Part shown: piece after piece, positions 77-4,040 of the stretch
Layout of the letters: each line of letters starts with the position of its first letter
Numbering within the stretch: position 1 is the stretch's first letter
From: a virus
Lineage: Duplodnaviria; Heunggongvirae; Uroviricota; Caudoviricetes
IMG/VR virus record: IMGVR_UViG_2778261276_000004
DNA length: 5,063 nucleotides
Strand: one strand, 5' to 3'
Notes under the pieces: generated by a model
Databases searched by the model: none
What the model was told of the DNA's origin: nothing
Seen by the model: only the letters and a program-made list of their open reading frames with translations
Position numbers and translations under genes: made by a program

Positions 77-1018
77 TCACCCCCTGAATCCTGCCGGGAT
101 CTGGCTGTAGTCCACATTGTCGTAACTGGCTTTGAAGTACGGGTCCTCGCGTTTTTCTGTGTGCGTGCTGACGGACGGCGATAAGCGCAGGGAAAGCTCA
201 TCCCATTTTTCCCGCAACTTCGACGGGCTGAGCACGTTACGGCACCAGAACGGATCGCGGCTGACGCGGCTGTACATCTCGCAGATTTGTTTGTGAGTAC
301 GACCATCCTGCACACACATCAGGCGAATTTCGTTTGCCCAGGCTGTCCAGTTAGGTTCTTTGGGACGAACCACCTCGCCGTCACATTCGGCGGCCTGCTC
401 GTACAGGGCGATGATTTTTTTCCAGAGCCACTGTGCGCAGGTCAAATCATCCTGCGTCCCCCACTGGCGCTTTTTAGGGCTGAATACAACCGCATCAGGA
501 TGGCGAGTTAAAAAATCCTGTTCATCCGTCTGCGTGTCCGGTTGCGAAGCGTCCGGACGAGAAGGTTTTTTATCTGACGGATCATGTTTTGATTTTACTG
601 ACGGATCCCCGCCAGATTCTGACGGGTGAAAACCCGCTTTTTTGCCAGATTTCGACGCATCAAATTTTGACGGGTCAGATTTTGATGCGTCAGATTTTGA
701 CGGGTCAGAATCTGACAGTTGAGAAAATGCCGCTGCCTGAAGCTTCGCAACGTTAAGCTGATAAACATTCGACGCATTGCGGTTACCCTGGCGACGCGCC
801 TTACGCGTTAACCAGCCTTCTGCTTCCAGCCGTGCGATAGCTGTCCTGACGGTACTCATCCCCGCGCCAATCTGGCGGGCAATGGTTTCAATTGATGGCC
901 AGCACACACCTTCGTCATTACTGAAATCAGCCAGGCGTGCCATAATTGCCACGCTGGATAATTTCATGCCTGACGCAGCGCAACCATCCCATACATAGCC
1001 GGTTAATTTAGTGCTCAT
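77..1018 (-). CDS. phage replication initiation protein, lambda O-like
   Basis: 313-aa ORF. The N-terminal ~95 aa (VAIMARLADFSNDEGVCWPSIETIARQIGAGMSTVRTAIARLEAEGWL) look like a winged-helix DNA-binding domain typical of phage/plasmid initiators. This is followed by a low-complexity Ser/Asp/Lys linker encoded by tandem DNA repeats and a C-terminal domain. GAGG sits 6 nt upstream of the ATG at 1018. It occupies the position after cro and cII in the early-right operon. Confidence 0.8.
   Translation of the reverse strand: MSTKLTGYVWDGCAASGMKLSSVAIMARLADFSNDEGVCWPSIETIARQIGAGMSTVRTAIARLEAEGWLTRKARRQGNRNASNVYQLNVAKLQAAAFSQLSDSDPSKSDASKSDPSKFDASKSGKKAGFHPSESGGDPSVKSKHDPSDKKPSRPDASQPDTQTDEQDFLTRHPDAVVFSPKKRQWGTQDDLTCAQWLWKKIIALYEQAAECDGEVVRPKEPNWTAWANEIRLMCVQDGRTHKQICEMYSRVSRDPFWCRNVLSPSKLREKWDELSLRLSPSVSTHTEKREDPYFKASYDNVDYSQIPAGFRG
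613..720. repeat. iteron-like tandem repeats inside the replication gene (candidate origin of replication)
   Basis: Five contiguous 15-bp units at 646-720 (cagatttcgacgcat / caaattttgacgggt / cagattttgatgcgt / cagattttgacgggt / cagaatctgacagtt), a further copy at 613-627 (cagattctgacgggt) and degenerate T(C/T)TGACGG cores at 573-580 and 597-604. An AT-rich stretch lies on the low-coordinate side (about 561-600). Lambda ori likewise lies inside gene O. Confidence 0.6.
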
Positions 1019-1027
1019 GACCGACCT

Positions 1028-1366
1028 CTATTTCCCTGAATTTACGACGAAACTGTTCGAGCGGGCTGAAGCACTCATGCTCATAGCCTTCACGGAGGTA
1101 GATAACCCGTTGTGTTTCCGGCTCCCAACGAATGACTCTGACGGGCACTCCGTAGTGATCTTTGAACCAGCGGTTAACTTGTCGCAAAGGACTGTCTCCT
1201 TCTGCCGGTTGAAATCACCCACAGCCCACTCAGCAAAGCTGTGGGTTACAATTTCCCTGTCACCTGGTACATTAACTGCATAGCAATACTCCACCTTCGC
1301 TTTTCCACCCGGTACAGGAAGTGCAATCAGTTGCGAGCGACGGTAGTGTGTTGTTAAACTGTTCAT
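1028..1366 (-). CDS. hypothetical protein; the 3' portion appears frame-disrupted or overlapped by a second small ORF
   Basis: ATG at 1366..1364 overlaps the TGA stop of the upstream CII-like gene (ATGA overlap). The N-terminal ~57 aa read as protein, but the C-terminal ~55 aa in this frame are Ser-rich and low-complexity. The frame shifted by one base is open from about 1208 to a TAA at 1010..1008 and reads as a balanced protein sequence (…[58 protein letters not shown]). Confidence 0.5.
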
Positions 1367-1932
1367 GCGTTAGTTTCTCCACAACCAGAAGCAATCGACG
1401 CCACGACGCCCGGAGCTGCACACTCGCGGGCGTCATTACTTTCTGAAATGCAAAAAATTTTGTAGACAAGTGCTGCATGCTCCTGCAGCTTCGAAATTGA
1501 GAGATACAGCTCGTCGTTAATTGCTGTCTTCTCATGCGGTTCCACTACACCGTCTTCGATTGCTGAACGAATCTGTTTTGAATAACTGCCGATCTGTTCA
1601 ATGACTTCCAGCAGACGCTGGTTAATATCGGCGTTGTCCACATCCTCGACGTTAGGAAGAGACACAAAGACGCCATTTGCAGACTGCGCCACAGCATCAG
1701 CAATGAAGTGAGTTCCACCAGCACGTTGCAAAATCATTGCCCATCCCAGCGGGAAAATCTGATCGCCATCAGCACGAAGGCGGTTAAATAATGCGTTCTC
1801 TGTTACATCCAGCCAGTCAGCTGCTTCAGCGTAACCACCCGGCAACTTTGCGATAGTTTTTCTGACAGCTTTCACGTACCACTCAGGCTGTTTTTCTACT
1901 TTCCAGTGATGCTTACCCACGGTTAGCCTCAT
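1363..1932 (-). CDS. CII-like transcriptional regulator (phage CP76 / YdaT-like family), tentative
   Basis: Gene immediately downstream of cro on the same strand. The ORF-track start at 2034 is a GTG that overlaps cro, so the true start is probably the ATG at 1932 or the GTG at 1920 (GAGG 6 nt upstream). Size and position fit the CII-type regulators of the 186/YdaT family; family assignment is from memory of the overall pattern, not a search. Confidence 0.55.
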
Positions 1933-2882: not shown

Positions 2883-3067
2883 GACCTCTCTTCTCTAACT
2901 AAGGCACCGAACTAAGAAAAGTTTGGTGTTTTCTCTTGCCATAATAACTAAGTTAAGTTAGATTTTATATCAAAGATAACGAACAGGCAGGACGCCCACG
3001 AAGTAGCCGCCTGGGGCATATGAAGTCCAGGATGATTCGTTGAGTCATGTTGTGCCACTAGGCACTC
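2883..3067 (+). promoter_or_regulatory. OL/PL-like operator-promoter region downstream of cI
   Basis: AACTAAG recurs at 2897-2903, 2910-2916 and 2946-2952. The 14-mer ctaagttaagttag (2948-2961) matches the OR site ctaagttttattag at 11 of 14 positions. Plus-strand promoter candidate: -35 TTGCCA (2936-2941), 17-bp spacer, -10 TAGATT (2959-2964), with the operator overlapping spacer and -10. Hairpins at 3015-3036 (CCTGG...CCAGG) and 3052-3065 (GTGCC-acta-GGCAC) lie in the leader. Confidence 0.45.
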
Positions 3068-3527: not shown

Positions 3528-3699
3528 TTGATTTTCCTTTTATGTATACGGGCTTAAAAGGATACCACCGAGCCTGAAGTGGTGAAAAGACAGGCACATA
3601 ACAGCTAAGTATTTTCAACCAAAGAGAATCCTTAGCGTTGTGGTGAATGCGGCTCAGCGCACGCGGGTTAAGGTTGAGGCTGACAGTCGACCTTCTGTG

Positions 3700-3827
3700 G
3701 ATACCCACCCGCCTGGTGTGCAACCTTCGCCAGGCACCGGGAGGCACCCGGCACCACAACTTTATGCTGTGTGTAGTCTTGGCGGTACCAGTTTGTACCC
3801 TTGCTTCCGGCTGGTATCGCCCTTTTT
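3700..3827 (+). ncRNA. candidate small RNA ending at an intrinsic terminator (possibly DicF-like); 5' boundary undefined
   Basis: GC-rich, hairpin-rich segment with no protein-like ORF on either strand. GGCGGTACCAGTTTGTACCC (3781-3800) resembles, from memory, the GGCGGTATCAGTTTTACTCC segment of E. coli DicF. Its location in the early-left operon of a lambdoid prophage matches where dicF sits in the Qin prophage. Confidence 0.3.
3781..3827 (+). terminator. Rho-independent terminator (plus strand)
   Basis: Stem GGCGGTACCAG (3781-3791) pairs with CTGGTATCGCC (3811-3821), 11 bp including one G-U pair, with a 19-nt loop. It is followed by C then TTTTT (3823-3827). Confidence 0.55.
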
Positions 3828-4040
3828 ACAAAACAGAGAAGAGCATCACCGGACGACGGGCTTATAACCCAATCCATCCGGGCGGCTGCTACCGCAGGTG
3901 TTCTTCTCTGTTTTGTGGAGAAACTAACTGCCCCTGCGGGGGCATTTATGGAAATGTAATTGACTCAATAATCGCCGGACGGTGAGGGCTTCCTTTTACC
4001 CGAATTCAGCGCGGTGCAGCGCATATACGTGGAGAACAAA

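Follow-up and report, generated by a model that had tools for sequence, protein, structure and literature searches.

Two genes in two frames at the ymfM locus of an e14-like prophage: a nested DUF4222 gene and an overprinted tail frame kept free of stops

The small gene located between a CII-like regulatory gene and a replication gene in the stretch of 5,063 nucleotides (nt) analysed here (IMG/VR record IMGVR_UViG_2778261276_000004; hereafter the window) raises the question of why its reading frame seems to change midway. The annotated frame reads as protein for about 57 codons and then becomes Ser-rich, and near that point a shifted frame opens that runs to the start of the replication gene. 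The original prediction left three explanations side by side: a frameshift mutation or pseudogene, programmed frameshifting, or a nested open reading frame (ORF) of 59 amino acids (aa) initiated at a TTG. The window corresponds to the region of immunity and replication in a lambdoid prophage of Escherichia coli that resembles e14, and the small gene is ymfM. It can be stated with high confidence that the locus contains two genes in two frames, the second being a DUF4222 gene nested in the tail of ymfM; in most lineages sampled the frame of the ymfM tail is, moreover, kept free of stops, which suggests what would be a ribosome relay towards the replication gene.

The annotated frame (frame A) is ymfM, with 112 codons on the minus strand (1028..1366), from an ATG at 1366..1364 to a TAG at 1030..1028. 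Its product matches phrog_1170 along residues 1-112 (E = 2.9e-70) and is 94-96% identical to YmfM of K-12 and other E. coli. The curated K-12 record (NC_000913.3) describes b1148 as 'cell division inhibitor YmfM', and orthology to b1148 is borne out by the sequence and by the position after ymfL, with identical neighbours. The overlap of the ymfM start with the ymfL stop, predicted as an ATGA, was read at 1366..1363. The shifted frame (frame B), at an offset of -1/+2 relative to frame A, holds the nested gene, also on the minus strand (1008..1187), which encodes 59 aa from a TTG at 1187..1185 to a TAA at 1010..1008. Residues 2-53 of its product match positions 3-52 of the 53 in the Pfam profile PF13973 (DUF4222; E = 8.6e-19, 67.3 bits against a cut-off of 27), and the product also matches phrog_1343 (E = 2.1e-34). 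The same ORF is RefSeq WP_001250269.1, annotated in strains CP8-3_Sichuan, K-12 and O157. The nested TTG-initiated ORF of the original prediction is thus a real gene, conserved, annotated in RefSeq and, as described below, under strong purifying selection.

The signals around the nested gene are also those that had been pointed out. The Shine-Dalgarno (SD) sequence AGGAG (1196..1200, minus) stands 8 nt before the in-frame TTG and is invariant in 51 E. coli haplotypes, and the TAA overlaps the start of the replication gene, 8 nt past its ATG (1018..1016) and 20 nt past the frame A stop. Frame B is open as claimed, but from 1214 rather than from about 1208, since a TGA at 1215..1217 (minus) closes it nine codons upstream of the nested start. 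In all lineages examined an ATG, GTG or TTG occupies the aligned start position, with a GGAG-like SD 5-9 nt ahead of it in most of them, and the nearest upstream frame B stop is found 1-18 codons before the start. The DUF4222 protein of e14 is predicted to be a small beta-barrel, its AlphaFold2 model having a predicted local distance difference test score (pLDDT) of 83. Searches of solved-structure sequences with YmfM and with the DUF4222 protein rendered no credible relative, and the predicted model of YmfM is poor, of a quality below that of use in fold searches.

Frame A can be divided into two segments. Codons 1-59 (1190..1366, minus), here called the X domain, are the portion of ymfM under purifying selection. 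Residues 1-57 are conserved as protein, with 60-63% identity in Klebsiella phages and 65% in Citrobacter phage phiNP, and the identity of X is 38-49% in phages of Providencia, Pantoea and Hafnia; this conservation in phages of five genera agrees with the protein-like character that had been ascribed to the first 57 codons or so. X is also found as a free-standing ORF, of 59-65 aa in Providencia phage PSTRCR_117lys, Hafnia phage yong2 and Citrobacter phage phiNP, and of 75-78 aa in genome contigs of Atlantibacter and Entomohabitans; in the Providencia, Hafnia and Citrobacter phages it stands alone or beside other genes. An exhaustive phmmer search with X rendered only 55 representatives, which, leaving aside spurious long repeat proteins, fall into about two length classes, of ~60-78 aa and ~100-123 aa. 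The matches to Listeria-Bacteroides-repeat and DUF7507 proteins, consisting of many weak repeats, were judged spurious. DUF4222, on its side, is found in many phages in which no match to e14-type X was obtained, and free-standing genes of the family reach as far as a phage of Elizabethkingia. As modules, X and DUF4222 can occur one without the other. The second segment of frame A, codons 60-112 (1031..1189, minus), is the tail overprinted on the DUF4222 gene. It has no stops, is predicted to be disordered (pLDDT 33-37) and is rich in Ser and Thr, as had been noticed for Ser, with 12 Ser and 5 Thr among the last 55 residues of frame A; the tail is also Ser/Thr-rich in Klebsiella and Pantoea.

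Polymorphisms were counted in the 51 distinct E. coli haplotypes, a sample of near-identical copies that is fit for polymorphism counts and not for estimates of diversity, and in which both frames are kept without exception. The X part shows 17 synonymous versus 7 nonsynonymous polymorphisms, all 7 of the latter being singletons. Of the 15 polymorphisms in the overlap, 14 leave the DUF4222 protein unchanged and replace a residue of the ymfM tail, and several of these tail replacements are at high frequency within E. coli. Comparison of E. coli with elements of Klebsiella, Citrobacter, Raoultella, Phytobacter and Pantoea rendered ratios of nonsynonymous to synonymous substitution rates (dN/dS) of 0.28-0.66 for X in frame A, 0.04-0.21 for DUF4222 in frame B, and 1.1-6.8 for the ymfM tail in frame A. 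The dS of DUF4222 is saturated between lineages, like that of the replication gene. A similar pattern of selection is found in SfV/ST64B-type phages. Purifying selection on both products of the overlap, as is characteristic of dual coding, was not observed: frame B is constrained and frame A has a dN/dS above 1. The polymorphism counts, the dN/dS of each segment and the predicted disorder of the tail all coincide, and the discontinuity is therefore the point at which purifying selection switches from frame A to frame B. The ymfM tail results from reading through the DUF4222 gene in an overprinted frame, and its amino acids evolve freely.

These results leave a negligible probability to the notion that the 112-aa ymfM is the only gene at the locus and that the DUF4222 ORF is a spurious call spread through the databases. 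In its favour, the curated K-12 record lists ymfM only, and the published phenotypes have been credited to ymfM (bioRxiv 10.1101/2020.11.19.390815). It is opposed by the 88% identity that DUF4222 keeps from E. coli to Klebsiella, versus ~50% for the overlapping tail, by the 14 of 15 overlap polymorphisms that are silent in DUF4222, and by the confident fold and the distant free-standing relatives of the DUF4222 protein.

An indel in the present strain or lineage could also have disrupted an ancestral single protein of ~120 aa in which X was fused to DUF4222. Proteins with X and DUF4222 in a single frame do exist in the databases (P0030, P0052, P0059 and P0065), but they have 1-14 members versus more than 1000 for the two-frame form and are joined at four different positions, such rarity and variable junctions being what sporadic indels or errors of assembly would produce. 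An alignment of orthologues had been proposed as a check for a single ~120-aa protein, and it is the two-frame layout that turned out to be the rule and the fusion the rare case: the layout, with identical offset and its own start codon, is present in elements of Klebsiella, Citrobacter, Raoultella, Phytobacter and Pantoea and in four metagenome-derived contigs. Conservation of the +2 offset, of the nested start codon and of the upstream frame B stop across E. coli, these five genera and the metagenome contigs, the existence of X and DUF4222 as free-standing genes elsewhere, and purifying selection on each frame within its own segment make a broken fusion extremely improbable; the frameshift mutation or pseudogene that had been contemplated is contradicted likewise by the identical offset across the genera, by the 51 haplotypes and by the near-full-length matches in ~2000 complete E. 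coli genomes. The contrary expectation, that orthologues would conserve the 112-codon frame with coding-type substitutions and have the alternative frame closed, holds only in that the 112-codon frame is kept open: the tail does not show substitutions of the coding type and frame B is not closed.

Programmed -1 ribosomal frameshifting, by which an X-DUF4222 fusion of ~118 aa would be made beside the 112-aa product, is very improbable too. Frame B is indeed shifted by -1 from A and stays open over nine codons ahead of its start, and there is a conserved stem-loop nearby, but a heptamer of the type X_XXY_YYZ is absent from the junction in 14 of 15 lineages and the single case, GGGGGGC in SfV, lacks conservation, in agreement with the earlier observation that no classical slippery heptamer is visible. 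Four lineages have a frame B stop one codon before the nested start. The stem-loop precedes any possible shift site instead of following it, and is also upstream of the open stretch of frame B. Moreover, an ATG, GTG or TTG in every lineage and a GGAG-like SD in most would be needless for the product of a shift. None of the three features of programmed -1 frameshifting (a heptamer, a downstream stimulatory structure, and a downstream frame devoid of initiation signals) was found.

The stem-loop itself lies within the X coding region (1218..1245, minus) and consists of CCCACAGC, a loop of 11-12 nt, and GCUGUGGG. At the equivalent place CUACCA...UGGUAG is found in Klebsiella, Providencia and other lineages, three pairs being changed on both sides, so that compensatory changes preserve the pairing. 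The covariation score of the stem-loop is 0.308, versus 0.139 in shuffles, none out of 500 of which reached 0.308. There are only about two classes of stem-loop sequence, so that few independent events are represented, and it could also be the case that the covariation takes place at the protein level. No U-tract follows the stem-loop on either strand.

If the amino acids of the ymfM tail evolve freely, it can be asked whether the tail frame stays open by chance. The number of stops in the alternative frames was determined in the first 50 codons of DUF4222 from 22 sequences, which form 13 clusters at <80% identity, by an exact dynamic-programming calculation under a null model given by the amino-acid sequence and the codon usage. 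Calibration on seven control genes of the window rendered 52 stops observed versus 52.7 expected. In the +1 frame of DUF4222, which is the frame of the ymfM tail, 8 stops were observed versus 49.9 expected, all 8 of them in three lineages, and in the +2 frame 82 were observed versus 79.9 expected. The tail frame is open in 10 of the 13 clusters, the product of the probabilities of being open amounting to 10^-12.2 and a conservative binomial estimate to 2e-7. The bias resides in specific synonymous positions: codons for Val, Leu and Ile that precede A or G end in a purine in 1 of 84 cases (44 expected), and those that precede C or T in 35 of 91 cases (36.5 expected). This effect of context on the codon ending (Fisher's test, 1e-10) is not seen in the three lineages with a closed frame, and the codon alignment shows recurrent T/C exchanges at the sites at risk. 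Synonymous codon choice in DUF4222, specific to context, is what keeps the tail frame free of stops.

That the tail frame is open as an unselected by-product of the composition of DUF4222 or of shared ancestry is improbable. In favour of such a by-product, a within-gene codon-shuffle null is far less extreme (P 0.1-0.4), and within E. coli the probability of finding no stop in 14 cases is 0.22, a comparison that has no statistical power. In addition, the frame is open in Yersinia phage YeP2 and Providencia phage PSTCR8lys, although X stops earlier there. Nonetheless, the null used, which takes into account both amino acids and codon usage, agrees with the counts in the control genes and in the +2 frame, the dS of DUF4222 is saturated between lineages, and the codon bias varies with context and is missing from the three closed lineages. 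In YeP2 (L108, ~710-886) the X-like ORF is unannotated and its TGA overlaps the DUF4222 ATG as ATGA, and in PSTCR8lys (L107, 681-890) the X-like gene ends 11 nt into DUF4222.

What the open frame may serve for is suggested by the place where it ends. The TAG of frame A (1030..1028, minus) overlaps the SD of the replication gene, an O-like gene, GAGG at 1028..1025, the sequence there reading TAGAGGTCGGTCATG. The TAG lies 9 nt before the O ATG and in frame with it (TAG AGG TCG GTC ATG), and a stop followed in frame by 1-3 codons is also found in the copies from Klebsiella, Raoultella, Citrobacter, Phytobacter and Pantoea, the copies L113 and L116 being exceptions. In e14-type elements the first frame A stop either precedes the ATG of the next gene by 3-9 nt or overlaps it by 11 nt, and in every e14-type lineage this stop is found within ~15 nt of the downstream start, the codon pairs that make up the stop differing from lineage to lineage (ATA-G, ATA-A, TTA-A and GTA-G). 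X homologues without DUF4222 downstream end exactly at the start of the next gene. In SfV, ST64B, Stx and related phages the tail frame has no stop and continues into a gene of the Ash/Rha type. The geometry of a coupled operon, with a stop overlapping or near the next start, is present at ymfL/ymfM, ymfM/O and DUF4222/O.

This geometry of stops close to the next start suggests that the feature under selection is the passage of ribosomes, rather than the tail peptide. Frame A would be started at the ATG coupled to the ymfL stop, giving X (~59 residues) followed by a 53-residue tail, and DUF4222 would be translated independently from the AGGAG and TTG nested in the ymfM tail. The tail frame ends at a stop within the ribosome-binding site of the replication gene, and ribosomes initiated at ymfM would pass to the next start, in a coupling relay from ymfL to ymfM and on to O across the nested gene.

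Several points weigh against this interpretation. The lineages used in the stop test are not fully independent, and the codon-usage null was drawn from genes of the window only. The relay does not explain the open frames of YeP2 and PSTCR8lys, in which the X-like ORF stops at the start of DUF4222 and the +1 frame is still open. The O gene has a good SD of its own, so that coupling may not be needed. The nested start is a TTG, a weak start codon, and in E. coli its SD (AAGGAG) is predicted to pair with a UCCUUU running into the TTG, in a 6-bp hairpin (1185-1201, minus). For either product, the published evidence of expression consists of SOS induction of the transcript only (PMC11002266). The hairpin was also considered as a general SD-sequestering feature and dropped, inspection by eye of the Klebsiella sequence having shown no equivalent pairing.

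It could also be the case that the tail matters as a disordered peptide, YmfM requiring a long Ser/Thr-rich C-terminal extension, for instance for division inhibition or for stability, and no delivery of ribosomes being involved. Avoidance of stops would be equally compatible with such a need, Ser and Thr abound in the tail in E. coli, Klebsiella and Pantoea, and in SfV-type phages the tail frame constitutes a linker into the Rha/Ash protein. We consider this rather unlikely, since X homologues of 59-78 aa lack such a tail and yet always end at the start of the next gene, and since the tail has replacements at high frequency within E. coli and a dN/dS above 1. Two genes in two frames, with a stop-free tail that would serve the proposed ribosome relay, is the reading that we favour. 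A wider version of it, put forward tentatively, is that in most of the lambdoid lineages sampled selection acts on the act of translation up to the O or Rha/Ash start, that this translation may tune the initiation of DUF4222, and that the SfiC phenotype ascribed to ymfM may belong wholly or partly to DUF4222.

Current annotations contain one or the other of the two genes: the curated K-12 record has ymfM only, RefSeq/Prokaryotic Genome Annotation Pipeline records of e14-type elements have DUF4222 only, and neither has both together. SfV-type RefSeq records show one 381-aa "Rha family" ORF that hides DUF4222. In the SfV/ST64B/Stx-type loci L120 (1880-3025), L106 (752-1588) and L105 (758-1915), one long ORF of 278-385 aa starts from the ymfL stop and is called 'Rha family' or 'transcriptional regulator' in RefSeq and GenBank; a conserved DUF4222 with a dN/dS of 0.05-0.08 lies wholly inside the long SfV-type ORF, in the -1 frame. 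DUF4222 is unannotated in the group II records shown, phage 1720a-02 being the only one that lists it, as a hypothetical protein. The region is mosaic, with different X-type N-terminal domains, of the mEp390 type and of the SfV type, on a single type of DUF4222-overlapping tail (P0076 and P0089; L101 and L102); the recombination junction is near the DUF4222 start and the long frame stays open. In Hafnia phage yong2 (L012, ~2990-3000) the putative TTG of DUF4222 and the ATG of an 'Ash family protein' are 4 nt apart and share one GGGGAGG motif, and DUF4222 is overlapped by the first ~60 codons of the Ash ORF as annotated. A 90-codon ORF (window 1011-1283, plus strand) runs antisense to the ymfM/DUF4222 overlap, and a comparable antisense ORF is annotated in Klebsiella phage ST101-KPC2phi6.3.

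The assignment of the window to an e14-like element agrees with its matches. The 501 bases of it that were queried are 100% identical to one E. coli chromosome, the e14 prophage of K-12 is 98% identical to the window at the DNA level, and, out of 5426 complete E. coli genomes, ~2000 contain a near-full-length match to the segment. Its kin among phages include SfII, SfIV and several Klebsiella phages. The order on the minus strand is a cro-like gene (1958-2158), ymfL, ymfM and the O-like replication gene. ymfL (1363..1920, minus) encodes a CII-like regulator that matches Pfam Phage_CP76 (E = 5.8e-14) and NCBIfam YmfL (E = 2.1e-49) and that RefSeq names ymfL; its TGA stop (1365..1363, minus) shares the ATGA with the ymfM start. 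The O-like replication initiator gene (77..1018, minus) has matches to Pfam HTH_36 and to DnaD_N-like domains and is annotated as replication protein O in phage records. Inside it, at 569-720, there are 5-7 direct repeats of 15 nt (CAGATTTTGACGGGT-like), which look like origin iterons and encode a protein stretch of repeated SDPSKSDASK. A match to the small RNA family STnc100 of Rfam was found at 3615-3830 of the window, on the plus strand, in a region without a long conserved ORF; it covers the full length of the model with 41.7 bits (E = 9.5e-7), below the gathering score of the family (47).

Pairs of genes nested in this way are a kind of arrangement already known in phages, and it is the signature of selection that is unusual here. 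In pairs of the lambda Rz/Rz1 type, a small gene that has an SD and a start of its own is embedded in an ORF of another frame, and in viral overprinted genes the second frame is disordered and evolves fast. The e14 pair resembles them in that the nested gene has its own SD and start and in that one frame is fast-evolving and predicted to be disordered. It differs from them in that the conserved partner is the embedded gene, in that the overlapping part of the host frame avoids stops only, with no constraint on its amino acids, and in that the embedded gene extends 20 nt beyond the stop of the host ORF. With coupled early operons of lambdoid phages the locus shares the ATGA at ymfL/ymfM and the position of the ymfM and DUF4222 stops, 9 nt before and 8 nt after the O ATG, respectively; unlike in those operons, the proposed relay would cross 53 codons that overlap another gene. 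No previous description of the ymfM/DUF4222 overlap was found in the literature searched.

The one studied DUF4222 protein that was found is RgdR (ECs1581) of enterohaemorrhagic E. coli, a small regulator encoded by prophage CP-933C and reported to contain the domain; it is an activator of LEE1 and type III secretion and a repressor of motility (PMC10877973, PMC3378721). RgdR has 99 aa, belongs to a P4-like element and needs its RGD (Arg-Gly-Asp) motif, while the frame B product of e14 has 59 aa. By our reading of the family alignment, the e14 protein has H-Y-G-V where its relatives have RG(V/I).

The existence of the nested gene is relevant to the phenotype that has been assigned to ymfM. In the literature ymfM is a single gene encoding 112 aa, whereas here frame A, which is that same gene, contains the start of a nested DUF4222 gene. 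YmfM has been described as an SOS cell-division inhibitor, formation of the Z-ring being inhibited by the cloned 112-codon ORF, and ymfM was identified in 2020 as the long-sought SfiC by expression of the whole 112-codon ORF from pBAD24 and by deletion (bioRxiv 10.1101/2020.11.19.390815); the original SfiC clone (D1-8E) spanned ymfL', ymfM and ymfN' (PMC3614548). The published inserts include the AGGAG/TTG start and at least codons 1-53 of DUF4222, which comprise the whole Pfam domain. Because the constructs carry, and the deletion removes, both genes, the phenotype is not assigned to one frame. The attribution of SfiC to YmfM thus rests on constructs with both genes, and ymfM is now in use as a tool for making filamentous cells, so the practical consequence of the arrangement bears on a published phenotype of E. 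coli. Beyond that, the locus is a natural example of a frame in which openness is conserved and sequence is not, and is useful as a test case for coupling across nested genes and for methods of detecting overlapping genes.

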